This document shows, in pieces, positions 14,067 to 45,406 of a stretch of DNA of 64,000 bases. Within the stretch, counting starts at the first letter, position 1; each line of letters opens with the position of its first letter. The translations under genes were made by a program, and so were the position numbers. The notes beneath the pieces are model-generated. The model was not told the origin of the DNA, ran no database searches, and saw only the letters and a list, made by a program, of their open reading frames with translations. The DNA lies in the IMG/VR virus record IMGVR_UViG_3300027278_000012, positions 1-64,000 of that record; one strand, 5' to 3'. The stretch is from a virus (taxonomy: Duplodnaviria > Caudoviricetes).

Positions 14067-17000
14067 ATGCCAGATTTTGATAAAAATCTTCAACCTATAA
14101 TTGAAAGTACAAAGTTTCCTGGATTTGATTTAAATGTACAAGAAGTAAGACCACAACCTATGCCAGATCTGTTATCAGGGTTTGGTGGAGGAACTTCTGA
14201 TCATACTGAAAAAGATATTTATGATATATTAGGACAAGCTCAAGCAAATTCTAGACAGAAAGGTAGAGGTGTTAGGGTTATGGATGCTCAATTAGTAGCT
14301 AATAAAAGATATGATTTCTTTAATCCTACTATAGAGAACTATGAAGACTTTGCATCTTATGGTCAATCTGGTTGGGAGAAAGCTAGGAATGGTGTACTTA
14401 AAGGAACTAATCTAGCAGGTACAACAGTACTTGGTGGGTTTGGTATGTTATATGGTATAGGTAAATCTTTGTTTGGTTCAGAACATAAACTATCTAGTAT
14501 ATGGGATAATGAGATTATGCAAGGGTTAGATAAATGGAATAACAAAGTTGATCAAGAGTATCTACCTAATTACTATTCTGAAAAAGAAACAAATGCAGAT
14601 TGGTATGATAGAGATAACTGGATGACTACTAATTTTCTATTTGATAAAGTTATTAAGAATGCTGGATTTGCTGTAGGAGCAGTATATTCTGGTAACATAG
14701 CTAATGGAGTGTTAGGTGCAGCTGGTGCTGTTATAGGAGAGTCAGCTATGGCTAGAGCTATAGCTATGGAATCTTCTCAAGTATTCAAAGCATTTGCTCC
14801 ATTATTAAAGAATACAGCAAGAGCTTTTTCTAAAGCTAAAAATATTGAAGCTTCGGAAGTATTAAAAAAAGGTATAACATCTATTGCAGATGTAGCAGAC
14901 CAATCTTCACAGATAGCAAAAATTGCTAAGATAACAAATCAATTTAATAATTTTAGTGATGCTGCAAGAAGAACAGCAATAGCTGCTTATTCATCAGGAG
15001 GTGAAGCTACATTTGAAGCATTACAAACTTCTAATGAGCATAGAACTAATTTAATTAATAATTATAAAAATACACATGGAGGAGTTGGTCCTACAGGAAA
15101 AGATTTATCAGATATTGATAATGAAGTTGCTGATGTAGGAAGAGCTTCTTTCTTAGGTAATATGGCTTTGTTATCTATAACAGAATATGTGCAGCTTCCT
15201 AAGTTATTAGGAAGTTCATACGCTGCTGAGAGACAAGCTTCAAATAGTTTATTAGGGAAAGCAGATGATGTTCTTCTTGACAAAGGGAAATATATAGCTA
15301 AAGAAGCTACAACTAAGTTTGGTAAATTATATAACAGAGCTGCAGGAGTAAGTAGATATGTTTTTGATCCTAAAGAAGGTGGTCAAGAATTAGGACAATA
15401 TGCTTTACAAGTAGGAACACAAAACTATTATAAAAAATCTAGAGAGACAGGTGCTGCAAATATGTGGACTGATGGATTTGTTTATGGATTTGTTGGAACA
15501 GATGAAAAAGGAGAAGATGTTGGAGCTTTAACTTCTAAAGCAGGTGCTGAAGGTGGTATAATAGGTGCATTTACTGGAGGAGTTATGCAAGCAAGATCAA
15601 CTTATGCTACAAAGAAACAAGCTAAAACAGGAACTGCTAACTTTTTAAATTTACTTAATGATGCACCAACATTTAGAGATGCATTTAAAGATAAATTAGA
15701 TTCAGCTAATAGAGGTATTAAACTTCAAGAACAACAACAAGATGCTGTACTTAGTGGTGATAAATTAGAAGCTATTGATTTAAGATCAGACATGGCTATA
15801 AACTATTTATCTGCTCGTATCAAGTATGGTAGAATGGATATGGTACAAGATGATATTGCTGACTTAAGACAATATAGTATAACAGAAGAAGGACTTGCAT
15901 CATTGAAAGAACAAGGACTTGCTAATATAAATGATACAAGAGAATCATATCAAAAAAGACTTGATAGTTTTGAAACTATGTCTAAGAACATAGAACAAAT
16001 ATACAAAGCAACTGACTTAATGTATAGTGGTGCTATACTAAAAGATGAAAAAGGTGATCCTGTAGTATCTCCTGATGGAAAACAATTAAGAAAATATTCT
16101 CCACATGTAATTGATAAAATGGTTTATTCAGCCAGTAAAATTACAGATTATGATCTTCGTATACCAGCAGTCAATGCATCACTTATAGCTGCTGGTGTTA
16201 ATACAATGGATGTATTACAAAGTATCATATTAAACAATAAACCTAGTAGGGAAGCTACAGATGCAGCATTAAAACAAATTAATGAACTTGACATACGCTC
16301 TGACTTGAAAGATCAACTTAAAGCAGATCTATCAGATGTTATTGAATTATCTTTACGTAGAAAACTATTCTTACAAGAGCATGCTGATATAACAAAGAAC
16401 CCATTAAATTATGAATACAATCCAGAATTTGAATTTGGTGAGTCTGAAGAACTAGATGTCAAAGTAGAGCAACAAGAAAAAGTTAAAGGGAAAAGAAAAC
16501 CTTTAATCACAGAGAAAGAGTTAGAAGTTAACAAAGAGTATTCATTAAAGGAACCTTTAAGAAAAGAAGGGTCTACATTACAGCTTGCTCCAAAGATCAC
16601 TGTGCTTTCTCAAACATTAGGTGGTGAGTTTGAGGTGAGACTTCCTAATGGTCAAATAAAGTTTCTTACACCAACAGAGTTTAAAGAATATAACATTTCA
16701 GATGAAGATAATACTTCTGAAGAAATGGGTGATATCTTAGATAAAGCTATTGACACTGTATTAGATAAAGAAGAATATGCTGATTACAAAGATCAATTAG
16801 AAATAGCTGGTGCTGAAAATGTCTTTAGTAAACGAGAATTTATAAATGATCTAGATGATCAAAAGTTAATTGATGCTATTGAGAAAGAGTTCAACGCTAA
16901 AACAAAAGATTTATTAGCACAAAGAGAAAAAGAAAGAATAGCAAAAGAAAAACTTGCTGCCACTAAAGAAACTCTTGATAAAGAATTAGAAAAGTTAGCA

Positions 17001-20000
17001 CCTACAGGAGGTTCTGTAGAAACTGTTAATATTGTTGCAGGAGAAATTATTGGTACTGAAGATAAAAGACCTGATGTTAGTATAGTTTTTTTAAAAACAA
17101 TTTCTCCTTCTGAAGAAGAAAAGAATAAAGAAACTAATAATATTCCTCATATAAAAAGAGCTAGAACGTTCTTGAATAATTTGAAATTCTTTAAGAATAG
17201 AAATAAAATAAAAGCAATTATTGTCACTCCTAATAATGCTGAAGCTTTAGGATTAAAAGGAATTGTACAACTATCAAACAACAAACTTGAATTCAATGAA
17301 GATGGTAGTGTAATAGATAATCTTACAAAAGAAGAAACTGATGTTGAAATGGGTTTCATGGCTCAAGTGTTTATTACACAAACAGCTGAAGGAGATTTCT
17401 TTGTTAATGAAAAAGGAGAGAAGTTAAGTAAAATAGGTCCAGGTAATCCTACTATACTTAATGATGTTGTATTTCAAACAATGACTTCTGCTAGTTTAAC
17501 TACAGAGGGAGGATATACAAAAATTAGAAAAGGTCAAGAGGAAAAAGCTGAAATAGCTTTAGAAGCATATAAGATATTTAGAGCTGATGTATTTGCTCAA
17601 GAAGGATATACACCTTATTCATTTTCTATATCAAGAGGTATACCAAATCAAATTGTAGTTAATGGTGTATATGAAGACAATCACATGTCTGATATACTTG
17701 GACCAAATGCAGAAAAAATAATAGCTGAACATAATGGATTGATTGAAGTTGTAACTACTGGACAAGTAGAAAACAATGCAGAACTATTATCTTTTAATGA
17801 AGGAACAGCATTAATTAGATTTGGTGATCTTTTAGATTTTGCAAACAACAAAGTCTTAACTAATAAACAAGCTCAGAATGTATTTGCTGTAATAGATGCA
17901 ATGGCTAAAGATTTAATTGCTAAATCTAGTACAGCTAAAGCAGGAAGACCAGACTATGGATATATTACATTCTTGAAAAATGTTCTGTATTTTAAATTTA
18001 AAGGAAACCCAACTACTCCTAGTCAAATAAGTCTTGATACTAAAACAATGGAGTTTAGAATTGGAGACAAATCTTTTGATTTATTTAAAATTGCTGACAA
18101 TAAACAAGCAATAACAAATGCTCTTCAAGATGCATTTATTAGTGTTAACAATAAAACATTAGCTGAAGGAACATCTAAAAAGTTTACAGAATATGTAACT
18201 GATAAAGATGGAAATTTAACAAAGGTTGTATGGACAAATTATCAATCATTTTTATTATCTGGTAAAAATCCTGATGGTTCTAAAAGATCTACAGGAGAAA
18301 CTCCTTTGATTACACATACAGCCAAGCCTACAGATAATTTAAATTCATACAAACAGAAGTATGCATTTATAACAGATACAGGTGTTCTTCCTTATGATAG
18401 AGTGCCAGTTAAAGAAGTTAAACCAGCTCCTGTTGCAACAACACCAGGTGTAAAAAAAATTGGTAAGTATGAAGTAAATAATGGTAAAGAAGAAACTCTT
18501 GAAGTTGGATCAGGTCCTGTATTATTTACAGCAACATTATCTCCAGAAGGAGTGATTGATGTGGATATGAAAGATAATGACACAATAGAGGCATTGTCTA
18601 CAAACCAAGGAAAACTTAATGAGTTTGAACAAAAACTTACAAGTGGTGCATCTAAAGAATACAAAGATGCATATGAAAAACTTTCAAATGAGGAACAAGT
18701 TAAATTATTTCTTTCTACAGCAATAAAACAAATGCTGGAAAAAGAATATGCAACACAATTAGAAGCTCCAGTAGTTGAAGAAGTGGTACAACCAATAGCT
18801 CCACCAGAAGTTGTAGCTCAACAAGATGTAGAAGCTAAGAAAGCTGATATAGAAAATAATGATTTTGTAATTAAAATAAAAAAGATAGGACAGAGCTATG
18901 CAGGAGGAAAACAGTTTGTTAATACAAAACAAACAGGAAAAGAATTTTTAGAACAGGTTAATTATGAAATGTATGGTGAAAAAGTTCAAGCAGAACATTT
19001 ATTATATTTTAAAGATAAATTTGATGGAGCATTATATGATTTAATTAATAGAGGATATAAAGAGCTTACTGGTAAAACTTTTGAAGAGTATGATGCAGAA
19101 CTAGCTGCTTTAGAAGGTGGTGAAGAAACAAATATAGGTAAAGAGATTACAGCTGTTGCACCTTTCAATAAAGGAACCATCACTGGTAAAATAATAAGTG
19201 TAACAGAAAACAAAGCTAAAAAAGGATTATATTCTATTACATTAGATAATGGAGAAAGAGTTTCAGGAAGTTTTGAAGATAATAAATTTACTTGGATACA
19301 GAATGAAGATACTCCATCAGAGAAACCATATGATCCTTCTAAGTTAAAAGGAAGAGATGATGCTCCTGAGTTTAGAATGGTGGGAGCAGCAGATGTTTCT
19401 GATAGAATGACTAACGCTGAGTTAGAAATATTCAAACAATGGCATGCAGAAAAAGTTCCTTTCATTCCTTTTGAAGTTCTTGAAAGAATGGTTAATGTGA
19501 ATGACACTGAAGAAGCTTGGGGTGTATTTGAAAATGGTGTAGCTAAGTTTGTAAGAGGTGGATTAAGAGGTACAGAGTATCATGAAATTGGTCATGGTAT
19601 ATGGACTATGTTATCTACTGAAGAACAAGAAGCTTTATTAAATGAATTTAGATCTAAACCTGGTACATTTACAGATAGACAAAGTGGTAAGAAGATTGAG
19701 CATATAGATGCTACAGATACTCAAGCTGAAGAAAGAATATGGGATGACTTCTCTGATTTTAGACTTGGTAAACTTCCTGCTAGATCATTAGGAGAAAGAG
19801 TTCGTAGATTATTTAAAATGGTTATGGACTTCTTCAAATCATTTGGAAGTAAACCATCATTAAAAGATGAATTATTTGAAGCAATTGAAGCTGGTAGATT
19901 TAAAGAAACAAAACTATCAAAGAGAGCCAAGACTATGGCTCCTAAATATAGAGCAATAGAAGGACTAACAGAAGAGCAAACTAACAACTATATCAATGAT

Positions 20001-23000
20001 ATGGTGGTTCAAGCTAGTCGTATTATTTTTAGAGAAGGAAACAAAGATGTTTTATTCAATCCTGAGAAACTCACAGGAAGTCAAGTATTTGATAAAGTGA
20101 GAGAGGATTATGAATCACGTGGAGCAATAACTGCATTAGGAGAAAAAAGATATAATGAACTTGTTAAAAGAACCATTGATTCAATAAGAACAAGAGGTAT
20201 ATCATTTAATGCAGAAGAAGTTGTATCTATAAATGATGAGAACGCTAATGGAAAAGAATATGCACAAGATACATTCTCTGTAGATTGGAAGAAACATTCT
20301 ACAGGAGCACTTAAGTTCTTACTATCTACACTAGCTGAAAGAAAAGCATTAAATCAAAATAATGTTCAAAAAGGAACACCATTAAAACCTGCAGAATTTA
20401 ACTTCTCTAAGGAAGGATATAAAGTATTAAACTTCAATAGAGTGTTTGCTACATTGTTAGATAGACTGCATGGTACAAATGATCCTGCTGAGTTCACTGA
20501 AAAATTCATACAACTTGCAAAAGAAGATTCAAACTATCTTCCTTTGTTTGTATCATTAGGTGGTAACCCAGTTACACATACATTTGATTTTGCTGATCCT
20601 AATAAATTTAAAGAATCAGATTGGAAACTATTTATACAGTTCTTTAATACATTTACAAGACAAAAACCTGATGCATTGATTCAATACATCTCTGAAGAAG
20701 GAGATGTATATACAGGATCTGCAAACATATTTACAACAGTTAAAGCAACAGTTGATAGTTGGGTAGATAACATGAAGGTTATTGGAAAAGGTCCAGGTGG
20801 ATTGATTAGTTATGATAAGGCTAATAAAGTTTATAAAATAGACACTACACTTAAAACAGGAATTAAATCTCTTCCTACCAAACAATATCAAGACATGTTA
20901 AGTTTCTTAGGTAAGATAGGTGTAGAGTTTCCTATTGGAACTTATCAAGCATTAACTAATAGAGAGATTATTGTAAAAGGAGAAACAACTACAGAGATAA
21001 AAGAATTTAATAAAGCTGTAGCTCAAATAAAAGCTTATTTAGGAAAGAATAATGAACTGATGACATTTGATGCTAAGAAATTAGACATTGGTGGTCCTCT
21101 TAGAACATTAGCTGGACTATATACTAGAGTGAACAATCCTAATCAAGACTCTACATATTTTGGTGTAGAGGGGCAACGTATTGGTTCATTCTCAGAAAAT
21201 AATGCTCCTTCTTATTTTGAAAATACATTCAATGAATCAAAAACATTAACTGAGCTTTTAGAAAAAATGCCTCAGTTAAATGATGTATATTCTAGAGGAA
21301 GTGAAATATTAAAACCAGGTGGTCTATTCTTCAATAAAGATGGAGAAAGAATAGCTACAATATCTGTAGGATATATTCAAGGAAGTAAGAATGAACTTAC
21401 AGGAAAAGATAAATCTACAGCTAAGTTAGCTAAAGGAGAAAGATTTGTGCAAGAGATGAATCAAAACATTAACGGTAACTATTATGTTCTTATTCCTGGA
21501 GATAGTTCAACAGAATGGATGATGAACTTAGGTAATGTCATATCTATGGATGATGTTATGTCAGGAGATCATTGGGGTAAAGTGTATAGTATTTATAGTA
21601 ACTATTTAACTGATGATATTAATTTAGCATTAGAGAATAGAAAACAAAATATATATCAAAGAGCCAGGTCTCAAGAACTTAGAATCATGAGAGATATTCT
21701 TCCTCAGAATATTGTTGAGGACATTGAAGAAATGATTGAAAATATTAATTTAAATTTTGAAGATTATACTTATGATGATATACAAGATTATATTTCTGCT
21801 AACAAAAAAGAAATAGATGCTTCTGTAAAATCTTTTATAGAAGGAACATCAGAAGGAACATTTGATACATTAATTAACTCCAATCAAATAAGAATGGTGG
21901 GAGAAAATAAATATAGTCTTGATAAATTTGATACAGAGTTTTTGAAAAAGTATAATTTAAATGGACAAGTTTCACTTGATGAAGTGATGAATCTTATAAA
22001 CTTCACTAACATTAATTATGCAATAAACAATCAAGAATATCACAAAATACTGTTTGGAGATCCTTATCAATTCAAAACTGAGAAAGGAAAACTAGATGAA
22101 ACAAAACGTATCAAATCATTTCTTTCAGGAAGAAGAAGAACATTTGATCATCCAGATTATAATAACTTCTTAAAGACAACATATAATAATGTAGATGGTG
22201 TTGAGTTAGATGATAAGACACCAGGATATCATGAGTACAAAGAATACGCTAACACTATTACATTTGATGATGTAGAGATTGTTGGTAGCACTGTAAATAT
22301 AAATACTGATTATGCTAAAGTTAATGAGACAGATGCAATGTCTTGGTTAATGGATGCTACGCACAAAGAGATTGCACTTAAAGAAGGACAATGGAGTGAT
22401 GAAGCTGAAGCTTTTCATCAATGGCACATGGCTTATACAAGAAGAGCATTTGATAAAAAAGGAATTAAAGCATATACAAGTGAACAATTAAAAGCAAAAG
22501 ATGCTAAATTGTTAGAATCTCCTATACCTAAGCACAAACTTGCTGTAAGAAAACCTATCATCTCTGGTAATAAAAACAATAAAACAGAATTAGATATTGT
22601 ATTAGATAAGACATCACAGATGCCTCTTTACTATCACATGGTTGAGGATACTAGTTTAGGAACAATATATGAGCAAATGTTTGATCAAAACATTGGTTAT
22701 GGTATTGTTATATCTGGTAGAAAGGTAGGGTCTGAAGGAAATCATAATATATATGTAGATGGTAAAGTTAATACAGCTAAGTTTGAAAACATAGTAGAGG
22801 TTCCTTGGAAGATATATGGTACACAAGTAGAAACTATGTCTGAAGGAGAAAAGACACAAACTAGAGGTTCTCAACCTACAAAGGTGGCTACTATGGATCT
22901 TTATGAAAATGGAGAACCAATTGGTGATACTCCTGAAAGAAAAGAGGTTATTAGAAAAGCTGTTAAAAGACATGATGGTACTTTAGACATGCTTAATGAA

Positions 23001-26000
23001 AATGCATACAATGAGTTATTGAATAGACTTGGTGTTGTAGATCTTGGAGATACATATGCTCTTGAGAATAATCAAATCATATCAGAAACTCTTATGTATG
23101 AGATGATGAGAAGAGATCTTTCTGAGAATGCTAAAGATACAATTCAGCTAGATGAGAATGGTGAATTCCCAATACCATTTGAAGCATCTCCTTCTTATAT
23201 ACAGATTAAGAATATTCTTTATTCTATGGTGAATAAAGCATTAATTTCTCCTGCAATGAGTGGAGCTCCACATGTACAGGCTCCTGTTACAATGTTTGAA
23301 CAAGCTACAGAGGGAAGAAGTTTTGCTAGAAAGATTGATAACAAATGGGTTAAGATTACTAAAGCTCAATATAAAGCTCTTACAGAAGAAGAAAAGAAGG
23401 GTGTGATGCTTACAGACGATACACTTAAGTTCTATGAAGATAAAGATGGTAAACGCTATTGTGAAGTGTTACTTCCTCATTGGTTTAAGAATAAGTTTGG
23501 AAAGATGACAGATGACCAAATTCTTAAGTATTTAGATACAGATGAAGGTAGAAAGATATTAACTGGTATAGGTTTTCGTATTCCTACACAAGCTCTTTCA
23601 TCTATGGAAGTATTTAAAGTGAAAGGATTCCTTCCTCAATATATGGGCTATACAGTGATAGTTCCTTCTGAAATTACTACTAAAGCAGGATCGGATTTTG
23701 ATATTGATAAATTGAACATGTACCTTAAATCTATATACACAGATAAAAATGGAAATGTTAAATTAGTTAAATGGTTAGGAACAGAACAAGCTACAAAAGA
23801 TTTCTTCACTAAGGTGTATGATGAATCAACAGAAAGAAAAGCTTTAAAGAAAGCAGAACTTATAGAAGCTGTTGATACATTGGTCTATGGACTAGATGAT
23901 ACAAAAGGATTAATAAAGAAATATGGAGAATACATTCTATCTATACAAGATAAGTATGATGATCCTTTTGCATTTAGAGCTGAGATGGAAAAAGAGTTAG
24001 ATAAACTAACTGATGATAATATAAATGCTGAATTGAGACAAGCTTATATAAATAATATGTATAAGAAATCTCTTGAGAATGAATACTATGATTCATTAGA
24101 AGAACTTCTTACACTTCCTGAAAACTTCAATAGATTAATTACACCTGTTGATGATGCAGGTCTTGAGAAAATTGCTGAGTTGTTAGATGAAAAAAGAGGA
24201 TATAATGAATCAAATATAAAAGGAAGACTTATCAATAGAAACTTCATGACCAATATGCGTCATGCATTTATCACTGGTAAGAGATGGGTAGGTATTGCAG
24301 CTGTTAATATTACAAACCTTTCATTAAGACAGAAGAGTAAAGTGTATTTAGATCCTTCTAAGATTACATCTTTATCTGCAAGAGAACGTGAGTTTGTAGA
24401 AGACCTTGTAGGAAATATTAGCATAGTTCTTCCACATAATACATTAGATGTTGAAGGAAAAACATATGTTTCGTTATCTGGAACAAGAACAGCTGATCTT
24501 AAACAACTTATTTCACAAAGACTATCTGGATATGCTACAGCATTTGTGGATATTGCTAACAAACCTTTCATCACTAAGATTATAAAAAGTGATACAGTGG
24601 TGTCTACATTTATGTTCTTAGAAGCTATTGGTGCTGGTAATACAGGAATCTATTTCTTAAACCAACCAATCATTGAGAAGTATTTAGAATACTTAGATAG
24701 TATTGGATCAAAGAGTGTTATGGGAAAAGATAATCTTTCTTATATTAGAGATCAATTCCCTACAACAGAAAAAGCAATGAGAGATGCTAGAATATCTGTA
24801 GATCAATTATTAGATAACATACAAGAGTATAGTGAGAAAGGTGAATTTGATCAACGTAAAAATGCTGAGCAACAATTGATATTGAATGAATTCATTAAAT
24901 ACAAAATATTAGCAGATCAATTATTTAGTTATACACAGTCTACAAACTATGATACAACAAGGTTTGGTAGTTCAGATGCTCTTCTTAAGAAAGAATGGGC
25001 TACATTCAACACTAGCAACTTTAACTTGATATCTAATGTAGATGAGGTGTTGGCTAATACATTTATAGGTAAACAAGCTGAACTTCTTTCTAAATCATTT
25101 GCATCCTTTGGTGCTATAATGAAGACAGAACTTCCTGAGATAAAAGCATACACTATTGCTACATTGAAAAAATATGCTACAAGAAAATACATGTCATCTG
25201 ATGATTATGAAAAGATAGCTAACTTAATCAAGAATTCTTTTGTAGATTATGTTATTCAGAATAATACAACTATATCTAACATGGTTGAACCTTTGCTTGT
25301 GAATTCTGAAACTGCAGTGGTTAATCAATTAGAACAAGCTAAGCAGAAGTATCCTAATATGCAGATACTAAAAGATCTTATTCCTGTACTAGGGAATAGA
25401 GATGGAAGTGCTAAGTCTATACAGCTTAAAGCAAATGTTAAAGATGCATATAGTGAGAACTTATATGTAGGTATGATGAGAGAGATGAGAGACATTCCAG
25501 AACTTAATAATCTGTATAATAACATTGTCAATGTTGCTATATTACAAGGAGTGGGTCAATCTGCTATATCTATAAGAAACATTATTCCTGTAGAAGATTA
25601 TGCAGCTAAGATTGCTCCTATTATACAACAGCTTACACCAAACCCAACATTAGATGCTTTCGAGAATGGAATGTTTGAAAGAAACAATTTCACAAACAAA
25701 GATGTAATCACTGATTTCACACCATATGTGTACACACCAGAGCCTGATGAGAATGGACAATACAATGAACTAAGTATAAGAACTAATCCTAATACAGGAG
25801 AAGATGAATTAGTTCATTTCTTACCAGCATTTACATCAATGAAAGGAGTTTCTAAAACATCAAGAAGATTATTAATGTTAAGTGATAGATTTAATTCATT
25901 TCAGTTGTCTTCTGATTTCTTAAGAATACCTAAAGTGATCACTGATAAGAATAGTGATGATGGTAAGAAGGTTAATGTAATGACAGGAATAGAAGTTACA

Positions 26001-27197
26001 AAAGCTGACTATGCTAAAATGAAACAAAAAGGTTCACAAGATCTTTATGATTCATATTATTATAAGAAGGTGTACACAACTAACAAAGATAAGTTTGGTA
26101 ATCCTATTCCATTAACAACCATTGGTGCTACTAAGCAAGGTGACCCTTTGACTAATTACTATTATAAACTAATCAATGTGTATGGAGATGGTAATAGAGC
26201 TGTAGAGTTTAATAAAGAGTTTGGCCCTTCTGTTATTGATAATGGATCAATGAGAATCAAGCAAGAGTTGAATGATCAAGATATTGTTAATCAATTTGCT
26301 TCACAGATTGCAGAAGAAGTTGTATCTTTACCAACAGAAGAAGAAATAGTTGCACCTACACAAATGATTGGAAAACCAAAAGGAGTAGAAGTTAAAGAAG
26401 GAATCTATGTAAACCAAGAAGCTTTGTCTAAAGATGAGCAACTTGAATTATTTGATTATCTAAAACCATTCTTAGAAGAACAAGCTGCTAAAACTAATAA
26501 AGGAGAAGCTGCTAGTAAAATGATTGGATTAGGATTGAGATGGGATTATAAGTCAAACAATCCTGGAAAACAAGCTATGAATATTCCAGATGTTATCAAT
26601 CCAGGAAACAAAACTAAATATGGATACTATGATAGTTCTATTAACAATCAACCTTTGGCACCTATCACTCCTCGTTTTAGAGAGTTAATGCAAAAGGCTA
26701 CAGGTGTAGATATGACTAATTATGATGGTGCCATTATTAATCTTTATGAACCTAATAGTTTTATTAGTTCTCATAATGATGTAGATGAAAGTAGATCCGC
26801 AATTGGTTATCCTGTAATAGGAATTAACATTGGTGGTACAGGAAACTTCTCTATTGAATCAAGAGATGGTGCTCCTAAACAATTAAATCTTAAAGCAGGT
26901 GCAGGATATGTATTTGGTGTTGATGGTGTAAACAGAGAAGTTTATCATAGAACTTTTGCTAAACCTCAAGATAGTTTCTTACCAGAATTAACAACTAAAT
27001 TAGATGGTAAAGCTTACGAACCAGGTTCATATAGAGTGACAGTTACAATGAGAAGAGTATTGCCTTTAGAACTAGGTATGCCTAGTAAACCAACTATTAT
27101 ATCTACAGAAACTATAAGTGAAAAACCTGAAGGAATAACTCAAGAAGAATGGGATGGCTTATCTCAAGAAGAAAAGAATAAAATAAACGAATGTTAA
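14067..27197 (+). CDS. Giant virion-encapsidated RNA polymerase (crAss-like single-chain two-barrel RNAP) with a zincin HExxH motif and a C-terminal AlkB-like 2OG-Fe(II) dioxygenase domain
   Basis: GFRIPTQ...PSEITTKAGSDFDIDKL, with DFDID at 23694-23708, is the catalytic motif of the phi14:2 gp66-type vRNAP. HEIGH lies at 19581-19595. AlkB motifs are HND (26772), YHR (His at 26946) and RVTVTMR (27033-27053). Confidence 0.9.
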   Translation: MPDFDKNLQPIIESTKFPGFDLNVQEVRPQPMPDLLSGFGGGTSDHTEKDIYDILGQAQANSRQKGRGVRVMDAQLVANKRYDFFNPTIENYEDFASYGQSGWEKARNGVLKGTNLAGTTVLGGFGMLYGIGKSLFGSEHKLSSIWDNEIMQGLDKWNNKVDQEYLPNYYSEKETNADWYDRDNWMTTNFLFDKVIKNAGFAVGAVYSGNIANGVLGAAGAVIGESAMARAIAMESSQVFKAFAPLLKNTARAFSKAKNIEASEVLKKGITSIADVADQSSQIAKIAKITNQFNNFSDAARRTAIAAYSSGGEATFEALQTSNEHRTNLINNYKNTHGGVGPTGKDLSDIDNEVADVGRASFLGNMALLSITEYVQLPKLLGSSYAAERQASNSLLGKADDVLLDKGKYIAKEATTKFGKLYNRAAGVSRYVFDPKEGGQELGQYALQVGTQNYYKKSRETGAANMWTDGFVYGFVGTDEKGEDVGALTSKAGAEGGIIGAFTGGVMQARSTYATKKQAKTGTANFLNLLNDAPTFRDAFKDKLDSANRGIKLQEQQQDAVLSGDKLEAIDLRSDMAINYLSARIKYGRMDMVQDDIADLRQYSITEEGLASLKEQGLANINDTRESYQKRLDSFETMSKNIEQIYKATDLMYSGAILKDEKGDPVVSPDGKQLRKYSPHVIDKMVYSASKITDYDLRIPAVNASLIAAGVNTMDVLQSIILNNKPSREATDAALKQINELDIRSDLKDQLKADLSDVIELSLRRKLFLQEHADITKNPLNYEYNPEFEFGESEELDVKVEQQEKVKGKRKPLITEKELEVNKEYSLKEPLRKEGSTLQLAPKITVLSQTLGGEFEVRLPNGQIKFLTPTEFKEYNISDEDNTSEEMGDILDKAIDTVLDKEEYADYKDQLEIAGAENVFSKREFINDLDDQKLIDAIEKEFNAKTKDLLAQREKERIAKEKLAATKETLDKELEKLAPTGGSVETVNIVAGEIIGTEDKRPDVSIVFLKTISPSEEEKNKETNNIPHIKRARTFLNNLKFFKNRNKIKAIIVTPNNAEALGLKGIVQLSNNKLEFNEDGSVIDNLTKEETDVEMGFMAQVFITQTAEGDFFVNEKGEKLSKIGPGNPTILNDVVFQTMTSASLTTEGGYTKIRKGQEEKAEIALEAYKIFRADVFAQEGYTPYSFSISRGIPNQIVVNGVYEDNHMSDILGPNAEKIIAEHNGLIEVVTTGQVENNAELLSFNEGTALIRFGDLLDFANNKVLTNKQAQNVFAVIDAMAKDLIAKSSTAKAGRPDYGYITFLKNVLYFKFKGNPTTPSQISLDTKTMEFRIGDKSFDLFKIADNKQAITNALQDAFISVNNKTLAEGTSKKFTEYVTDKDGNLTKVVWTNYQSFLLSGKNPDGSKRSTGETPLITHTAKPTDNLNSYKQKYAFITDTGVLPYDRVPVKEVKPAPVATTPGVKKIGKYEVNNGKEETLEVGSGPVLFTATLSPEGVIDVDMKDNDTIEALSTNQGKLNEFEQKLTSGASKEYKDAYEKLSNEEQVKLFLSTAIKQMLEKEYATQLEAPVVEEVVQPIAPPEVVAQQDVEAKKADIENNDFVIKIKKIGQSYAGGKQFVNTKQTGKEFLEQVNYEMYGEKVQAEHLLYFKDKFDGALYDLINRGYKELTGKTFEEYDAELAALEGGEETNIGKEITAVAPFNKGTITGKIISVTENKAKKGLYSITLDNGERVSGSFEDNKFTWIQNEDTPSEKPYDPSKLKGRDDAPEFRMVGAADVSDRMTNAELEIFKQWHAEKVPFIPFEVLERMVNVNDTEEAWGVFENGVAKFVRGGLRGTEYHEIGHGIWTMLSTEEQEALLNEFRSKPGTFTDRQSGKKIEHIDATDTQAEERIWDDFSDFRLGKLPARSLGERVRRLFKMVMDFFKSFGSKPSLKDELFEAIEAGRFKETKLSKRAKTMAPKYRAIEGLTEEQTNNYINDMVVQASRIIFREGNKDVLFNPEKLTGSQVFDKVREDYESRGAITALGEKRYNELVKRTIDSIRTRGISFNAEEVVSINDENANGKEYAQDTFSVDWKKHSTGALKFLLSTLAERKALNQNNVQKGTPLKPAEFNFSKEGYKVLNFNRVFATLLDRLHGTNDPAEFTEKFIQLAKEDSNYLPLFVSLGGNPVTHTFDFADPNKFKESDWKLFIQFFNTFTRQKPDALIQYISEEGDVYTGSANIFTTVKATVDSWVDNMKVIGKGPGGLISYDKANKVYKIDTTLKTGIKSLPTKQYQDMLSFLGKIGVEFPIGTYQALTNREIIVKGETTTEIKEFNKAVAQIKAYLGKNNELMTFDAKKLDIGGPLRTLAGLYTRVNNPNQDSTYFGVEGQRIGSFSENNAPSYFENTFNESKTLTELLEKMPQLNDVYSRGSEILKPGGLFFNKDGERIATISVGYIQGSKNELTGKDKSTAKLAKGERFVQEMNQNINGNYYVLIPGDSSTEWMMNLGNVISMDDVMSGDHWGKVYSIYSNYLTDDINLALENRKQNIYQRARSQELRIMRDILPQNIVEDIEEMIENINLNFEDYTYDDIQDYISANKKEIDASVKSFIEGTSEGTFDTLINSNQIRMVGENKYSLDKFDTEFLKKYNLNGQVSLDEVMNLINFTNINYAINNQEYHKILFGDPYQFKTEKGKLDETKRIKSFLSGRRRTFDHPDYNNFLKTTYNNVDGVELDDKTPGYHEYKEYANTITFDDVEIVGSTVNINTDYAKVNETDAMSWLMDATHKEIALKEGQWSDEAEAFHQWHMAYTRRAFDKKGIKAYTSEQLKAKDAKLLESPIPKHKLAVRKPIISGNKNNKTELDIVLDKTSQMPLYYHMVEDTSLGTIYEQMFDQNIGYGIVISGRKVGSEGNHNIYVDGKVNTAKFENIVEVPWKIYGTQVETMSEGEKTQTRGSQPTKVATMDLYENGEPIGDTPERKEVIRKAVKRHDGTLDMLNENAYNELLNRLGVVDLGDTYALENNQIISETLMYEMMRRDLSENAKDTIQLDENGEFPIPFEASPSYIQIKNILYSMVNKALISPAMSGAPHVQAPVTMFEQATEGRSFARKIDNKWVKITKAQYKALTEEEKKGVMLTDDTLKFYEDKDGKRYCEVLLPHWFKNKFGKMTDDQILKYLDTDEGRKILTGIGFRIPTQALSSMEVFKVKGFLPQYMGYTVIVPSEITTKAGSDFDIDKLNMYLKSIYTDKNGNVKLVKWLGTEQATKDFFTKVYDESTERKALKKAELIEAVDTLVYGLDDTKGLIKKYGEYILSIQDKYDDPFAFRAEMEKELDKLTDDNINAELRQAYINNMYKKSLENEYYDSLEELLTLPENFNRLITPVDDAGLEKIAELLDEKRGYNESNIKGRLINRNFMTNMRHAFITGKRWVGIAAVNITNLSLRQKSKVYLDPSKITSLSAREREFVEDLVGNISIVLPHNTLDVEGKTYVSLSGTRTADLKQLISQRLSGYATAFVDIANKPFITKIIKSDTVVSTFMFLEAIGAGNTGIYFLNQPIIEKYLEYLDSIGSKSVMGKDNLSYIRDQFPTTEKAMRDARISVDQLLDNIQEYSEKGEFDQRKNAEQQLILNEFIKYKILADQLFSYTQSTNYDTTRFGSSDALLKKEWATFNTSNFNLISNVDEVLANTFIGKQAELLSKSFASFGAIMKTELPEIKAYTIATLKKYATRKYMSSDDYEKIANLIKNSFVDYVIQNNTTISNMVEPLLVNSETAVVNQLEQAKQKYPNMQILKDLIPVLGNRDGSAKSIQLKANVKDAYSENLYVGMMREMRDIPELNNLYNNIVNVAILQGVGQSAISIRNIIPVEDYAAKIAPIIQQLTPNPTLDAFENGMFERNNFTNKDVITDFTPYVYTPEPDENGQYNELSIRTNPNTGEDELVHFLPAFTSMKGVSKTSRRLLMLSDRFNSFQLSSDFLRIPKVITDKNSDDGKKVNVMTGIEVTKADYAKMKQKGSQDLYDSYYYKKVYTTNKDKFGNPIPLTTIGATKQGDPLTNYYYKLINVYGDGNRAVEFNKEFGPSVIDNGSMRIKQELNDQDIVNQFASQIAEEVVSLPTEEEIVAPTQMIGKPKGVEVKEGIYVNQEALSKDEQLELFDYLKPFLEEQAAKTNKGEAASKMIGLGLRWDYKSNNPGKQAMNIPDVINPGNKTKYGYYDSSINNQPLAPITPRFRELMQKATGVDMTNYDGAIINLYEPNSFISSHNDVDESRSAIGYPVIGINIGGTGNFSIESRDGAPKQLNLKAGAGYVFGVDGVNREVYHRTFAKPQDSFLPELTTKLDGKAYEPGSYRVTVTMRRVLPLELGMPSKPTIISTETISEKPEGITQEEWDGLSQEEKNKINEC

Positions 27198-27198
27198 T

Positions 27199-30100
27199 AT
27201 GGCACATTGTGTAAATAGAAGTTCTCCAGAATTTATAGCATTAGCTGAACAATCTAATATCAATCCAATAATTCTTGCTGCAAAGGTTTCTTTGTGGCAG
27301 GAAGAAAACGGATTAGATAATTTTCCTGCATTAGAAGATGTAGTAAAAACTACAGAGGAAGAAGTTATAGAACAGGAAGCTTCTCCAAAACTAATTAGTT
27401 TAATGAAGGAATTCATTAAATCAATTGGTGTTGATTACAAACTTGTTAGCGATATTGTTGTAGATGGTGTTAAACAAGATGCAAATGGTGTAGCTCTTAT
27501 AATGCAAAAGCTTATTCAAGTGGTAGAAGGACAAGAAGATGTAGCTCTTCCAGAAGAAGCTATGCACTTTGCTGTTGAGATTATAAGACAAACTAATCCA
27601 AAACTATATCAACAATTACTAAAAGAAATAAATGGACATCCTAAGTTAAATGCTGTAATAGCTTTATATGGTAATGATCCAGCTTATCAGAAAGATGGAG
27701 TTAGAGATATAGTAAAACTTAAAGAAGAAGCTATTGCTCAAGTGTTAGCTAATAGATTAGAAGATGTTGTAGGAAGAACTTGGTTTCAAAAAATTATTGA
27801 TTTTCTAACACCTAGATTCATGAAAGCTGGATTTGATAAAGCTTCTATGGATGTTCTATCAGGTAAGATAGCTAGTGTAGAAGATATAGATGTTTCTCAA
27901 AGAGGTGCTTATTTCCAACTCTCTACTGGAGAAAGAGTGTTTAATGATTTACTAGAAACATCTAAGAGAATAAAAACAAAAGATGGAGGATATGAATTAG
28001 ATGGTATAAAATCTGTAAGAAGGGTTTCTGATTTTGCTAAAGAATTCTATGAAAGAATATTTCCACCATCAGCTAAGTCTGAATTTGAAGATGCTGTAAA
28101 CTCACTTAAAGCAGAGAAAGGAACAGCAGGACATACTGATATTGAATATGCACTTAAGATGCTTGTAGATCCTACAACAGGACTTCTTAGAGAAGAAATG
28201 GAAGATGATAGTGATTACATATCAAAGCTTAATCCTAATGATAGAAGGATGTATGAGATACTTAGAGATAATCTAAAAGAACGTCTATTGGCTATTGATG
28301 AGAAGGCTCCTGGAACTAGATTTATGTCTGAGGTAAAGATATTTGATAAGAAAAGAAAAATTGCTGGTACAGTGGATTTTATTGCTGTTACTCCTGATGG
28401 AAAGACTAGCATTCTTGACTGGAAGTTTATGGATCTTAATACAGATAGGTATGAAGATGTTCCTTGGTATAAAGTGGAAGCTTGGAGAATACAGATGGGT
28501 AAGTATAAAGATATCATCTCTACTAACTATGGTGTAAAGAGTCAAGACTTTGATCAAACAAGAATGATTCCTATATTGGCTAAATATACAAAAGCTGATT
28601 TTGAAAAACAAATTCTTCCTAGACTTTTAGAAGTGAAAATAGGAAGTGCAAACATTCAAAACATTGAAGAAGATTACTTACTTCCTGTAGGTTTAGCAGA
28701 TGAGAAAACAGGAAACAAAAAGATTGATAAATTAATTGAGCAGTTCAATGCTACTTACAGAAAACTTGCTGAAGAAAAAGTTAATGAATCTGAAAGATCA
28801 AGTAAAGCTGAACAATTAAATGCTTTGTATAAAGCTATTAGACATTTACAAATTAAAGGAAACGTTGTTCCATTAATTAATCAAGCTAAGATATTAAACA
28901 AACAAGTGTCAATGTTGTTGAAAAGATACAACACTGACTTTGAAGGAAAGGACCCTTCAGAAGTAGATGCAGATAAGATAAATGCTTTTGCAGGAATGAT
29001 TAGAATTCACTTAGAAGCATTGCAACCATACTTAAATCTTAAACAATTAGGAACATTACTTACTGATGAAACAGAAGAAAATGATAAACTAAAACTAGAA
29101 CTTGGAGCTACAAGAGATAAAGTTGAAGATTATATATTTCAACTTGAAGAACTAGATGAAACTTTTGGAGAGAAATTTAATAATACTAGTAGTACACCAG
29201 AAAAAGTTGTAAAAGGTATTACTAAATGGTTCTCTAGTATATCTACAATACAAGTTGCAAACATTCAAACATTATATAAACTTGCTAATAAAGCATTTGG
29301 TTTATCTAATATAGAAACTTTAGAACAGGTAAAAAGATTAAATGTTTTAAAAGATGAATACACTAAGTGGGCATCTAGTAAAGGATTGAGTATTGGTAAC
29401 TATTTTAATATTCTTATGAAGAAAGATAAGAATGAACTAATAGATCAATACGATAAAAAGTTTTATGATGAGTTGAAATCAAGAATAGCAAAAAAAGATG
29501 TTGATTGGATTTTAGATAATGTTAACAAAGATTTATATAGAGAGCACTTAGAAGAACTAACAGAAAAAGAAATACAATATATATTATCAAGACCTAGAGT
29601 TGGTACAGAAGAAGAAGTTAAAGCTTCTATCAAAAGAGACATGGCTAAGGTTTATGCTAAATATGATATTCAGAACAAAAATTCTAATGGTTGGTTGATG
29701 TATAAAGAAGTTAGGCAGTTCCCAAAAACAGATAAATGGGAATCTGAGGAATGGAAAGAACTAAACAAACCAGAGAATGCACCAGCTAAAAAATTCTATG
29801 ATTATATTGTAGAAAGAAATAAATATTTCCAATCAGTAGAATACTTAAATGGTAAAGCTTCAAGAAAGTTTCTTCCATGGATAAGAAAAGGTTTTACAGA
29901 AGGACTTGTATTTGAAGGTAAGTCTAGAGGACTTGGTGAACAATTCCTTAGAAACATATCAATGGATGAGAATGAAGCTGGATATGGTCAAACAGATCCT
30001 ATTACAGGAGAGTTAATAAATTCTGTTCCTAAGTATTTTACAAAAGATCTTGGAGAAGGTTATTCTACAGACTTGTTTAAAACAATGGCTTTATATAATG

Positions 30101-31878
30101 AATATGCTATTAAGTTTAAGAATTTAAAAGACATCGAAGAAAGAAGTTTACAATTGTTAAGAATAGAAAGAAATAAAAAATCTATCATGACTTCAACTTT
30201 TGGATCTTTATTAAAAGAAGGAGATGATTTAAAATACAATCCTAATAACTTAGAGAATTCTAAGCTTCTGGAAGACATGATCAAATCTGTTGTGTATCAA
30301 CAGAAATATATTCAAAGCGAAGTGTTTGATGTAGCTCTTGGTAAAATATCTGGATTTGGCAAAACTCTTAATGAGAAACTAGGAATAACTTTATTTCCAG
30401 AAAATCTTGAAGAAAGACAATTGTCAGCAAATAAATTTTTAGATACAATAAATACACAGTTTCAATTAAATACATTAGGACTTAATCCTCTATCTGCTAT
30501 ATCCAACTTATTTGGTGGTACAGCAAATGGTTTAATTAATGCTGGTAAGTATTTTACAAAAACAGATTTCTTAAAAACACAAATGTGGATGCTTGGAGGT
30601 AAAATGACAGGTGGTGAAGATAGACAAAAAGCATTAGCTGCTCTTGATTACTTTGTCCCTTTTGTAGAAAGTTATAATAAGAACGCTGCAAGAAAACTTT
30701 CATTAAATAAAATAGATGAACAAGCTGTACAAGATTATCTAATGTTCTTGATGAGAAATGGTGATGAAGGTGTACAAGCGTTAAACTTTTATACATTTAT
30801 CAAAAATACAATTGTTCAAGATGGAAAAATAGTTAATGTTAGAGAGTATTTAAGAAGCACAGATGAATACAAAGCTTTTTATTCTGGAACACAACAAGAA
30901 AGAAAAGAGAGAGCTGATAAGTTTGAAAAAGATGTACAAGAATTATTAGATGATAAAGGAGTGTTGAAACTTGGAGAGGTAGTAGATGGTGAATTTGTTA
31001 TTCCTGGTGTAGATAAGAAATCTGATTCTGTTATAGAATTTAGAAGAATTGTTCAAAGTTTTACAGCAGATGCTCTTGGTTCTATGAGTGAAGAAAATAA
31101 AAGACTTGTAAACATGAATGTGTATGCATCTTCTATGATGGTATTTAAAAACTGGATACCTAGACTTGTTGATGTTCGTATTGGAAATATAAAATACAAT
31201 GCTGCATCAGATGCTTATGAATGGGGAAGAATGAGGATGATCTTTGGTATGGTATTTACAGACACTTTAAAATCAATCAATAGTTTACAATCTGCATTAG
31301 GAGGGAACAATGATGTTTGGTTAGAGCAAGTTAGGGGTCTTTATGAAAGAAAGCAATCAGAGTATGAAGCTAATACAGGAAAGAAACTTGATATGACTGA
31401 AGATGAATTTATAGCTCTTGTAAATCAAAACATTAAAAATCAAGCAGTAGATTTAATTATTTTGTTAGGTTTAATATCTTTACTGGCAGGTTTAAAAGCT
31501 GCAGCTCCAGATGATGATGAAGATGTTCTTGTTAGAAATCAATATAAGTTTTTATTAAAAGCTACAGATAAGTTAACAGATGAGCTTATGTATTTCTATA
31601 ATCCAACCACTCCTCTTGATTTAATTTCAGGTAAAGGAGGTATATTTCCTTCTATAGGATTATTGGATAATTACAAAAAGTTTTTTACAAATTTTGTTTC
31701 AGAGAACTATGGGATAATTACTAATAACGAAGAGATACAAGATGATGCTACACCAATTAAATATTTAATGAAATCATTTCCTATAGCAAGTCAAGCATCT
31801 GGATATTTACCAATGTTCTATCCTAGCTTAGCTAAAGATCTTGGGATCAAAATGCAATCACAATATGGAATTAGATAA
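27199..31878 (+). CDS. Large ejection protein with a PD-(D/E)xK (RecB/Cas4-like) nuclease domain and an EExxH zincin-like motif
   Basis: GTAGH...SEVKI...AGTVDFI...ILDWKF...QMGKY at about 28110-28580; EEAMH at 27553-27567; long helical C-terminal region. Confidence 0.7.
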   Translation: MAHCVNRSSPEFIALAEQSNINPIILAAKVSLWQEENGLDNFPALEDVVKTTEEEVIEQEASPKLISLMKEFIKSIGVDYKLVSDIVVDGVKQDANGVALIMQKLIQVVEGQEDVALPEEAMHFAVEIIRQTNPKLYQQLLKEINGHPKLNAVIALYGNDPAYQKDGVRDIVKLKEEAIAQVLANRLEDVVGRTWFQKIIDFLTPRFMKAGFDKASMDVLSGKIASVEDIDVSQRGAYFQLSTGERVFNDLLETSKRIKTKDGGYELDGIKSVRRVSDFAKEFYERIFPPSAKSEFEDAVNSLKAEKGTAGHTDIEYALKMLVDPTTGLLREEMEDDSDYISKLNPNDRRMYEILRDNLKERLLAIDEKAPGTRFMSEVKIFDKKRKIAGTVDFIAVTPDGKTSILDWKFMDLNTDRYEDVPWYKVEAWRIQMGKYKDIISTNYGVKSQDFDQTRMIPILAKYTKADFEKQILPRLLEVKIGSANIQNIEEDYLLPVGLADEKTGNKKIDKLIEQFNATYRKLAEEKVNESERSSKAEQLNALYKAIRHLQIKGNVVPLINQAKILNKQVSMLLKRYNTDFEGKDPSEVDADKINAFAGMIRIHLEALQPYLNLKQLGTLLTDETEENDKLKLELGATRDKVEDYIFQLEELDETFGEKFNNTSSTPEKVVKGITKWFSSISTIQVANIQTLYKLANKAFGLSNIETLEQVKRLNVLKDEYTKWASSKGLSIGNYFNILMKKDKNELIDQYDKKFYDELKSRIAKKDVDWILDNVNKDLYREHLEELTEKEIQYILSRPRVGTEEEVKASIKRDMAKVYAKYDIQNKNSNGWLMYKEVRQFPKTDKWESEEWKELNKPENAPAKKFYDYIVERNKYFQSVEYLNGKASRKFLPWIRKGFTEGLVFEGKSRGLGEQFLRNISMDENEAGYGQTDPITGELINSVPKYFTKDLGEGYSTDLFKTMALYNEYAIKFKNLKDIEERSLQLLRIERNKKSIMTSTFGSLLKEGDDLKYNPNNLENSKLLEDMIKSVVYQQKYIQSEVFDVALGKISGFGKTLNEKLGITLFPENLEERQLSANKFLDTINTQFQLNTLGLNPLSAISNLFGGTANGLINAGKYFTKTDFLKTQMWMLGGKMTGGEDRQKALAALDYFVPFVESYNKNAARKLSLNKIDEQAVQDYLMFLMRNGDEGVQALNFYTFIKNTIVQDGKIVNVREYLRSTDEYKAFYSGTQQERKERADKFEKDVQELLDDKGVLKLGEVVDGEFVIPGVDKKSDSVIEFRRIVQSFTADALGSMSEENKRLVNMNVYASSMMVFKNWIPRLVDVRIGNIKYNAASDAYEWGRMRMIFGMVFTDTLKSINSLQSALGGNNDVWLEQVRGLYERKQSEYEANTGKKLDMTEDEFIALVNQNIKNQAVDLIILLGLISLLAGLKAAAPDDDEDVLVRNQYKFLLKATDKLTDELMYFYNPTTPLDLISGKGGIFPSIGLLDNYKKFFTNFVSENYGIITNNEEIQDDATPIKYLMKSFPIASQASGYLPMFYPSLAKDLGIKMQSQYGIR

Positions 31879-45164: not shown

Positions 45165-45406
45165 TGGCAAAGAATATAACTAAGGTTCCTGATGGTCCTC
45201 TTATTAAGAAGACAGGAAAATTCAAAGGAAGTACATTGAAAGCTGGTGGTATGATTAAACGTGCTGATGGTTCTTTTTCTAAACGTGGATTATGGGATAA
45301 TTTGAGAAGCAAAGCAGCTCAGAATAAAAAAACTGGTGCAAAACCTAAAGCTCCTACTAAAGCAATGTTGACTCAGGAGAAAAAAATAAAGTCTAAAGGA
45401 AAATGA
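45164..45406 (+). CDS. Small Lys-rich protein (GLWDNL motif)
   Basis: TAATG-coupled; LKAGG motif. Confidence 0.7.
   Translation: MAKNITKVPDGPLIKKTGKFKGSTLKAGGMIKRADGSFSKRGLWDNLRSKAAQNKKTGAKPKAPTKAMLTQEKKIKSKGK

Follow-up and report, generated by a model that had tools for sequence, protein, structure and literature searches.

The locus described here raises the question of why a giant phage protein should carry, close to its end, a segment resembling the dioxygenase AlkB. The DNA is a stretch of 64,000 nucleotides (nt), positions 1 to 64,000 of IMG/VR record IMGVR_UViG_3300027278_000012 (Duplodnaviria; Caudoviricetes), called the window below; the segment lies in an open reading frame (ORF) of 4,376 amino acids (aa). 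An earlier, sequence-only reading had proposed an AlkB-like dioxygenase fused to the C-terminus of a virion RNA polymerase and injected together with it. Our comparisons identify the segment as an AlkB-like 2-oxoglutarate (2OG) and Fe(II)-dependent dioxygenase domain with a double-stranded beta-helix fold, and its carrier as a crAss-type virion RNA polymerase of the phi14:2 gp66 family, from an uncultured crAss-like phage. They delimit the domain as a discrete, in-frame, exchangeable cassette, set between the body of the polymerase and a short tail at its end, and the identities among relatives indicate that this cassette has been exchanged horizontally, and recently.

The AlkB-like domain

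The domain and its predicted catalytic residues are located as follows.

26409 to 27053, + strand: AlkB-like domain, Pfam family 2OG-FeII_Oxy_2 (PF13532), aa 4118-4329 (Pfam search)
26772 to 26780, + strand: H4236-N-D4238, the HxD of the iron-binding triad, followed by D4240-E4241 (motif search, alignment with E. coli AlkB)
26946 to 26948, + strand: H4294, in YHRT, third iron ligand (motif search, alignment with E. coli AlkB)
27033 to 27053, + strand: R4323...R4329 (RxxxxxR), the 2OG-binding arginine pair (motif search)

The motifs that had first drawn attention to the segment run from GIYVNQEAL, which starts at aa 4112 (nt 26400), to YRVTVTMRR, which ends at aa 4330 (nt 27056), both in the frame of the ORF. 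A hidden Markov model search bore out the family assignment: PF13532 matched with 54.1 bits against a curated cut-off of 31.2 (E=3e-14) over profile positions 4-194 of 194, the end of the profile being reached at R4329. This is the sole Pfam family found in the whole 4,376-aa protein at E<=0.1, and a six-frame search of the entire 72,120-base record gave only the one match to it, at 26409-27053. The complete HxD...H...RxxxxxR set lies exactly where the sequence-only reading had placed it, and H4236-N-D4238 is the only HxD within the last 326 residues. In an alignment with relatives (30 sequences, 48-96% identity), H4236, D4238, H4294, R4323 and R4329 are invariant, as are E4241 and the Asn and Tyr of the N-x-Y 2OG pocket; D4240 is conserved in at least 90% of the sequences.

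When the domain was compared with PDB sequences using phmmer, E. coli AlkB ranked first (E=0.002). The alignment pairs INLYEPNSFISSHNDVDES with INRYAPGAKLSLHQDKDEP and retains the N-x-Y pocket, the HxD and the subsequent D-E, with HNDVDE here opposite HQDKDE of E. coli AlkB. We take H4236, D4238 and H4294 to be the counterparts of H131, D133 and H187 (E. coli numbering); the Asn and Tyr of N-x-Y and E4241 are equivalent to N120, Y122 and E136. An AlphaFold model built from the alignment of 30 relatives had a mean predicted local distance difference test (pLDDT) score of 90.9 and a predicted template modelling (pTM) score of 0.83. With this model Foldseek found 245 matches in the PDB at E<=0.001; the top 23 listed were all E. 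coli AlkB (best 3khb_B, E=3e-12, template modelling (TM) score 0.75 on the target), followed by ABH2, ALKBH6, rice ALKBH1, ALKBH3 and ALKBH5. The double-stranded beta-helix, whose absence would have spoken against the assignment, is thus predicted with confidence. An intact and catalytically competent AlkB domain is the best explanation of the conserved residues and the model. The ratio of nonsynonymous to synonymous substitution rates (dN/dS) of the domain was 0.06-0.38 in all ten pairs compared, which indicates purifying selection. As judged by the NCBIfam equivalogs, the domain is not an orthologue of bacterial AlkB, since it scored 37 bits against a cut-off of 231 for TIGR00568 and 23 bits against 267 for NF011930; we assign it to a separate, compact clade.

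The polymerase that carries the domain

The following features of the carrier protein are used below.

14067 to 27197, + strand: giant ORF, virion RNA polymerase polyprotein bearing the AlkB cassette, 4,376 aa (ORF list, translation)
21903 to 24845, + strand: region homologous to the phi14:2 gp66 virion RNA polymerase, aa 2613-3593 (phmmer against PDB, tblastn)
23694 to 23708, + strand: DFDID catalytic metal-binding motif of the polymerase, aa 3210-3214 (motif search, alignment with 6VR4)
19581 to 19595, + strand: HEIGH (HExxH, zincin-like) motif, aa 1839-1843, function putative (regular-expression search)

Translation of the ORF meets neither stop nor frameshift in its 4,376 codons. Residues 2613-3593 match residues 843-1729 of PDB 6VR4 chain A, which is gp66 of the crAss-like Cellulophaga phage phi14:2 (phmmer, E=5.2e-17), and in this alignment the DFDID of the ORF stands opposite the DFDID of gp66, so the proposed fusion to a virion RNA polymerase holds. 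A tblastn search with aa 2501-3978 matched 115 phage records in GenBank, most of which are crAss-like by name or can be recognised as such; among the matches is phi14:2 g066, annotated 'Catalytic RNA polymerase subunit'. The neighbourhood also fits the crAss type. Giant virion structural proteins lie on both sides of the polymerase, together with a collagen-like tail fibre, and beyond the tail fibre, on the opposite strand, is a block with RecA/UvsX, PhoH, deoxynucleoside monophosphate kinase, endonuclease VII and rIIA/rIIB genes. From homology and this gene neighbourhood we infer that the 4,376-aa protein is packaged and delivered to the host. The gp66 polymerase is described as virion-packaged, and in vitro it transcribed single-stranded and denatured DNA efficiently and double-stranded DNA poorly (bioRxiv 10.1101/2020.03.07.982082). 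Three RNA polymerase-associated proteins of crAss001 (gp47, gp49 and gp50) were detected in virions by mass spectrometry and treated as cargo, and this cargo was proposed to unfold partially during ejection through the tail (PMC10172136).

The first ~1770 residues of the ORF (14067-19400) are without a counterpart in gp66, as gp66 aligns with aa 2613-3593 through its residues 843-1729. They may correspond to a separate phi14:2 virion protein encoded upstream, g067, in which case the ORF would be a fusion. No Pfam or PHROG family covered aa 1-~1770, and none matched at the HEIGH motif (aa 1839-1843); the PHROGs search gave no useful family for either the giant protein or the cassette.

An exchangeable cassette before the terminal tail

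The two elements at the end of the protein were delimited by comparison with relatives.

26342 to 27106 (approximate), + strand: AlkB cassette, aa ~4093-4347 (blastn, flank comparison)
27108 to 27194, + strand: conserved C-terminal tail (…EKPEGITQEEWDGLSQEEKNKINEC), 29 residues, ending in Cys4376 (comparison with relatives)

IMG/VR was scanned with the 272-residue C-terminal piece of the protein, and 47 loci (L001-L047) were found. L001-L036 carry the AlkB domain, and L037-L038 are broken inside it by the contig end. L039-L047 match only the last 24-42 residues, and the open frame at these loci is that of a close polymerase relative; relatives without AlkB thus possess the same tail. In blastn comparisons with AlkB-less relatives, similarity to the window ends at 26340-26387 and resumes at 27100-27124. 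In three distant AlkB-bearing relatives (L004, L005 and L011), similarity to the window is confined to 26342-27106, at 83-85% nt identity. Because the gap in the former and the stretch shared by the latter coincide, we place the cassette at ~26342-27106, between a linker and the conserved tail as the sequence-only reading had it. Where AlkB is missing, the linker (…VSLPTE…) joins the tail (…EKPEGISQEEWDGLSQEEKNKINEC) directly with nothing between (L039/L040, L041, L044, L047), or a NADAR domain is found upstream of the tail in place of AlkB (L042, L045, L046). The cassette has short Pro/Lys-rich linkers of its own, PKG-x-x-VK-x-GIYVNQ at the start and MRRVMPLEPGMP-x-x-P (MPLExGMPxKP) at the end, which recur beside unrelated flanking sequence in the giant carriers inspected.

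Two further observations concern the slot and its borders. A module of ~55 residues without a Pfam match fills the slot in L043 (~9870-10050) and is also present in L045, where it is downstream of the NADAR domain. An in-frame joint encoding TQPSTSV in nearly the same DNA letters occurs at the cassette borders of L012, L021, L029 and L031, in L029 on both sides; this 21-nt joint was looked for at the cassette borders of the window and was not found there.

When the part of the polymerase core that surrounds DFDID was used as query in a second scan, 70 loci were found, and 66 of them extend to a stop codon. AlkB is present in only six of these 66 (L050, L058, L071, L073, L100, L110), and 22 others have 572-630 residues past the core match, which leaves no space for a cassette. 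One locus, L079, ends directly past the match and four are duplicates; the 39 distinct longer C-terminal parts were scanned with Pfam. Besides AlkB (six), they contain NADAR (four: L051, L071, L095, L110), a superfamily 1 RecD/Pif1-like helicase (six: L071, L076, L077, L091, L096, L110), DUF7831 (four: L089, L091, L111, L114) and one weak match to DUF7934, under its cut-off; 23 of the 39 show no Pfam family at E<=1e-4. The order in L071 and L110 is AlkB, NADAR, helicase, and NADAR adjoins AlkB in L071, L110 and P0013. Further modules seen in eight more giants with AlkB are RNase H, a GHKL ATPase, ART-PolyVal (at 29-30 bits, slightly under its cut-off of 31.2) and a circularly permuted YpsA SLOG domain. 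Unrelated enzyme modules of one giant polypeptide thus vary among close relatives, as in polyvalent proteins, and the suggestion that the AlkB domain is a variable accessory module is borne out.

Among 1,150 candidate proteins in a search restricted to lengths of 2,406-7,658 residues, the cassette matched 172 giant proteins at E<=0.001. Precomputed Pfam assignments for the best 120 of these 172, which are 51-100% identical to the cassette, name the AAA_30 helicase for 21, NADAR for 13 and DUF7831 for 12. When the query is added to these 120, 119 of the 121 giants carry a DxDxD motif in the same GSD-x-D-x-D context: 103 have DFDxD, 16 have Tyr, Leu or Met in place of the Phe (…GSDYDIDKL… and similar), and two have none. 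A scan of 1.84 billion representative proteins gave 210 relatives at E<=0.001; in the best 150 of these, 55 are at least 2,000 aa long and 30 are shorter than 400 aa. A search for relatives of 129-413 aa found 25 proteins, 23 of them on contigs of at most ~6 kb and probably fragments. This clade of AlkB domains appears to be almost confined to these polymerases. No match to the whole ORF (megablast) or to the cassette (tblastn) was found in 50,697 GenBank phage records, so that this collection offers no cultured or deposited phage as a model. The cassette typically lies ~1,000 residues C-terminal of the DxDxD motif in the 121 giants. The description of the domain as C-terminal is therefore right for most giants, but in this protein the 29-residue tail follows the domain, and in 3-4 of the 121 (P0035, P0042 and P0105, with P0099 ambiguous) the cassette is N-terminal of the catalytic motif.

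Recent exchange between phages

For five phages, the cassette and a 401-residue piece of the polymerase core, both on the same contig, were compared with the corresponding parts of the window.

L001/L100: cassette 99% aa (98% nt); core 49% aa (61% nt)
L003/L058: cassette 94% aa; core 65% aa
L002/L071: cassette 95% aa; core 71% aa
L011/L110: cassette 84% aa; core 49% aa
L028/L050 (nearest relative): cassette 96% aa; core 83% aa

We conclude that the exchange was recent because cassette identity reaches 99% in L001/L100, against 49% for the polymerase core of that phage. Constraint acting on the cassette was considered as the sole cause of its conservation and was ruled out, as the codons are shared too: in the L001/L100 contig, 94% of identical residues have the same codon in the cassette, against 59% in the core. 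Four of the five most similar cores (82-85%) are without AlkB, three of them (L048, L049, L052) having nothing in the slot and L051 having NADAR; the fifth, L050 at 77%, has AlkB.

The tail and the next cargo protein

The gene that follows the polymerase bears on how the cassette is carried.

27199 to 31878, + strand: next giant protein, 1,559 aa, with a single cysteine at residue 4 (27208-27210) (cysteine count)

Of the 4,376 residues of the polymerase just two are cysteines, C3132 and the last, C4376 (27192-27194); the cassette domain has none. The three giant proteins encoded upstream (771, 1,293 and 842 aa) also have none. In nearly all relatives the polymerase has a Cys within its final 1-4 residues, and phi14:2 gp66 ends in …QECK. 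The first cysteine of the next ORF is at residues 3-12 in 34 of 35 readable relatives and is its sole cysteine in 33 of the 35. Moreover, the type of tail co-varies with the N-terminus of the next protein. The pairs seen are …NKINEC with MAHCVNRSS, …KSIC with MA(N/T)CPNKN, …KLK(D/E)CY with MACINPND and …DSCVPF with MA(N)CNDKKKF. At the nucleotide level, the block ~27100-27750 is 75-88% identical in relatives that share the tail, against 65-70% elsewhere (blastn), and in L028, otherwise 90-98% identical to the window, just this block (27122-27368) has been replaced. The polymerase tail and the first ~180 codons of the next gene thus appear to behave as a single inherited block. These patterns suggest an end-to-end tether between successive cargo proteins, probably a disulfide. 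Such a tether would explain why the cassette is placed before the tail and not at the extreme end. The cassette would travel with the polymerase, because it precedes a tail that is kept where AlkB is missing and that co-varies with the next cargo protein.

Residues 304-447 of the 27199-31878 protein gave a weak PHROG match to the exonuclease family phrog_298 (E=1.2e-5), and the protein has no Pfam family.

Proposed function and alternatives

The explanation to which we incline, with slightly better than even confidence, is that the cassette supplies an enzyme, loaded in advance, that removes alkyl adducts from nucleic acid, the adducts being chemical damage or a host-inflicted modification with about equal probability. 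The polyprotein would be packed in the capsid as cargo, would be extruded into the host cell, either together with the DNA or before it, and would refold inside. With host Fe(II), 2OG and O2, the AlkB module would then act on the Watson-Crick face of bases, oxidising the N-alkyl groups of adducts of the 1-methyladenine (1mA) or 3-methylcytosine (3mC) type, with the alkyl group leaving as an aldehyde and the base being restored. Its substrate would be single-stranded nucleic acid present where early transcripts are made, either the melted phage template or nascent early RNA, or both. Adducts of the 1mA/3mC type block base pairing, and AlkB enzymes and this type of polymerase both prefer single strands.

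The damage-repair form of this proposal would follow the precedent of the plant viruses discussed below. In the other form, the cassette would be a counter-defence tool, an oxidative counterpart of NADAR that reverses host-inflicted alkylation of single-stranded phage DNA or early RNA; taken by itself we regard this as possible though doubtful. A role in conflict is favoured by the company that the cassette keeps in the slot (NADAR), by its sporadic distribution and by its rapid exchange. Phage NADAR proteins remove ADP-ribose that DarT1 has placed on phage DNA (PMC11825919). If the counter-defence proposal is true, there would be an undescribed anti-phage immunity that acts by base alkylation as DarT does by ADP-ribosylation, and the polymerase slot would be a catalogue of the nucleic-acid modifications that hosts wield as weapons.

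Several points weigh against a pre-loaded adduct-stripping enzyme. The domain is only 18-21% identical to canonical AlkB and far under the NCBIfam equivalog cut-offs, and its substrate may therefore differ. Its presence in merely six of 66 polymerase relatives implies that the cassette is dispensable, and its variable place in the polypeptide makes it unlikely that the enzyme is coupled to the polymerase active site in a fixed geometry. Packaged double-stranded DNA is a poor target for alkylation of the 1mA/3mC type, which weakens the damage-repair form, and we know of no host defence that alkylates phage bases at these positions, which weakens the counter-defence form. Both the activity of the enzyme and the packaging of AlkB-bearing proteins are themselves predictions, and the HExxH motif at aa 1839 leaves room for proteolytic processing.

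That motif is also the starting point of a different explanation, in which the cassette is not delivered at all: it would be cut off before or during packaging, or would work late and only as part of newly made polyprotein, for example in cleaning replicating or packaged DNA. The flexible Pro-rich linkers that flank the cassette could be cut by a protease. However, the tail beyond the cassette is conserved, and its Cys pairs positionally and co-varies with the next cargo protein; to remove just the cassette, the chain would have to be cut twice and joined again. The presence of DxDxD in 119 of the 121 giants is likewise a bias that is hard to explain if physical linkage is irrelevant, and we judge loss of the cassette before delivery, or late action alone, to be unlikely. 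Delivery could also serve an attack on the host, with AlkB stripping protective adenine methylation of host DNA or removing 1-methyladenosine, 3-methylcytidine or N6-methyladenosine (m1A/m3C/m6A) from host tRNA, rRNA or mRNA, so that the host is disabled or its translation redirected. For the sporadic AlkB-like genes of jumbo phages, Iyer and colleagues proposed the resetting of methyl marks or the targeting of protective host adenine methylation (PMC7824862). Sporadic occurrence (six of 66) and lateral exchange suit a conflict gene of this kind, and the fold matches include the RNA and tRNA demethylases ALKBH1, ALKBH5 and ALKBH8. In both fold and sequence the best matches are nevertheless to E. 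coli AlkB and not to m6A erasers, with TM scores on the target of 0.72-0.76 against 0.58-0.63 for ALKBH5. The few enzyme molecules of a virion would probably be slow on a whole host genome or RNA pool, and the NADAR, helicase and RNase H modules point to local work on phage DNA or an RNA:DNA hybrid. An eraser directed at the host therefore seems improbable to us.

The substrate might be no nucleic acid at all: the enzyme might hydroxylate or demethylate a small molecule or a protein, be it the RNA polymerase of the host, a defence protein or phage cargo. Some AlkB homologues do act on proteins, the divergence of the domain is too great for its substrate to be assigned by orthology, and polyvalent proteins often bear protein-modifying modules, with ART-PolyVal in relatives falling just under its cut-off. 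The D-E that follows the HxD reads the exocyclic amine of 1mA and 3mC in E. coli AlkB, and here it is retained (E4241 invariant, D4240 in at least 90% of sequences); the closest solved folds are DNA and RNA repair members as well. We give a protein or small-molecule substrate only a small chance. Finally, lateral movement and absence from most relatives are what would be seen if the cassette were an inert or decaying passenger, spread by recombination at the linker joints. Such a hitch-hiker is disfavoured, and scarcely credible, in view of the low dN/dS (0.06-0.38), the invariance of all the catalytic residues and the 4,376 unbroken codons. A pre-loaded enzyme acting on alkyl adducts is therefore the explanation we retain.

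Other features of the window

Two GIY-YIG homing-endonuclease-like genes, one of them with a NUMOD1 domain, are present at 6885-7526 and 45403-46026. The gene at 6885-7526 is wedged between genes of giant virion proteins. No DNA methyltransferase or base-modification gene that might be paired with AlkB was found among the 47 ORFs of the window (Pfam, E<=1e-4).

Comparison with known systems

The cassette shares the double-stranded beta-helix of E. coli AlkB (PDB 3KHB, 2FD8, 3BI3, 3I3M; best E=3e-12, TM 0.72-0.76 on the target), and the HxD...H triad, the RxxxxxR, the N-x-Y and the HxDxDE signature all align. It differs in its low identity (18-21%), in ~20 extra residues between a conserved Trp and Tyr of the lid region and in the lack of cysteine, and it is a module of a 4,376-aa polyprotein where E. 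coli AlkB is a free protein. The polymerase of phi14:2, gp66, has the homologous DFDID core, a near-terminal cysteine and the same neighbourhood of giant virion proteins; it is encoded by 6,543 nt (~2,180 aa) and has no AlkB, whereas the window protein has ~1,770 extra N-terminal residues.

The sequence-only reading had drawn a parallel to the replicases of plant RNA viruses (Flexiviridae and others), and the parallel is apt: there too, AlkB lies inside a viral polymerase polyprotein. For these domains a recent acquisition, followed by horizontal spread through recombination, was inferred, and their demethylase activity, with a preference for RNA, was demonstrated (van den Born et al. 2008, PMC2553587). 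The plant-virus enzyme is made after infection, whereas here the carrier is the DNA-dependent polymerase, predicted to be packaged in the virion, of a double-stranded DNA phage. Matches to plant-virus polyproteins in BFVD are at the level of fold only, with 11-16% identity, and no plant-virus AlkB was among the sequence matches of the cassette in the giant-protein search or the scan of 1.84 billion representatives, which places those domains outside its clade. Since identity is at most 18%, the fusion in plant viruses is a parallel and not a case of common descent. Giant viruses and uncultured phages are represented in BFVD as well, by stand-alone proteins with the AlkB fold, all at most 18% identical to the cassette. 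One BFVD entry that matches the AlkB fold, A0A481YQG8 of Pithovirus LCDPAC02 (1,058 aa), is named 'NADAR domain protein'; the pairing of AlkB with NADAR therefore recurs outside phages.

The domain call itself is not new. The JGI pipeline already labels several of the giants 'alkylated DNA repair dioxygenase AlkB', and the NCBI or JGI names of six relatives are this or none. Full-text literature searches combining AlkB with crAss-like, Crassvirales, virion RNA polymerase, polyvalent proteins or counter-defence found no paper describing the cassette. The text of Yutin et al. 2021 has neither AlkB nor dioxygenase, and where a jumbo-phage paper deals with both polyvalent proteins and AlkB, the AlkB is stand-alone only (PMC7824862). 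The reading as an exchangeable cassette on a virion polymerase is undescribed in the literature searched.

The polymerase thus has an exchangeable slot for enzymes that undo base adducts (AlkB, NADAR) or for remodellers of nucleic acid (helicase, RNase H). No phage enzyme acts in the cell earlier than the injected polymerase of the crAss type, and among the Crassvirales are many environmental phages as well as those most abundant in the human gut. The contents of the slot point to a struggle, in the first minute of infection, over the chemical state of the incoming template. Should the substrate prove to be a host-made modification, a form of bacterial immunity not seen before would come to light; should it be chemical damage, the cassette would to our knowledge be the first known pre-packaged direct-repair enzyme in a phage virion.

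Two known systems resemble the proposed arrangement most in their logic. Polyvalent proteins are also giant, are delivered together with DNA and carry fast-changing modules for early conflict (Iyer, Burroughs, Anand, de Souza and Aravind 2017, PMC5512222), a paper whose main text contains no AlkB, 2OGFeDO, dioxygenase, 2-oxoglutarate or crAss. Here, unlike in those proteins, the scaffold is a two-barrel polymerase of the crAss type, and delivery is predicted. The phage NADAR protein AdfN, which acts early in infection, undoes a base adduct carried by phage DNA (Johannesman et al. 2025, PMC11825919). AdfN is a glycohydrolase of a different fold, not a dioxygenase, and is expressed from a free-standing gene where the AlkB module would be virion cargo, but its NADAR family fills the same slot as AlkB in relatives of the polymerase.

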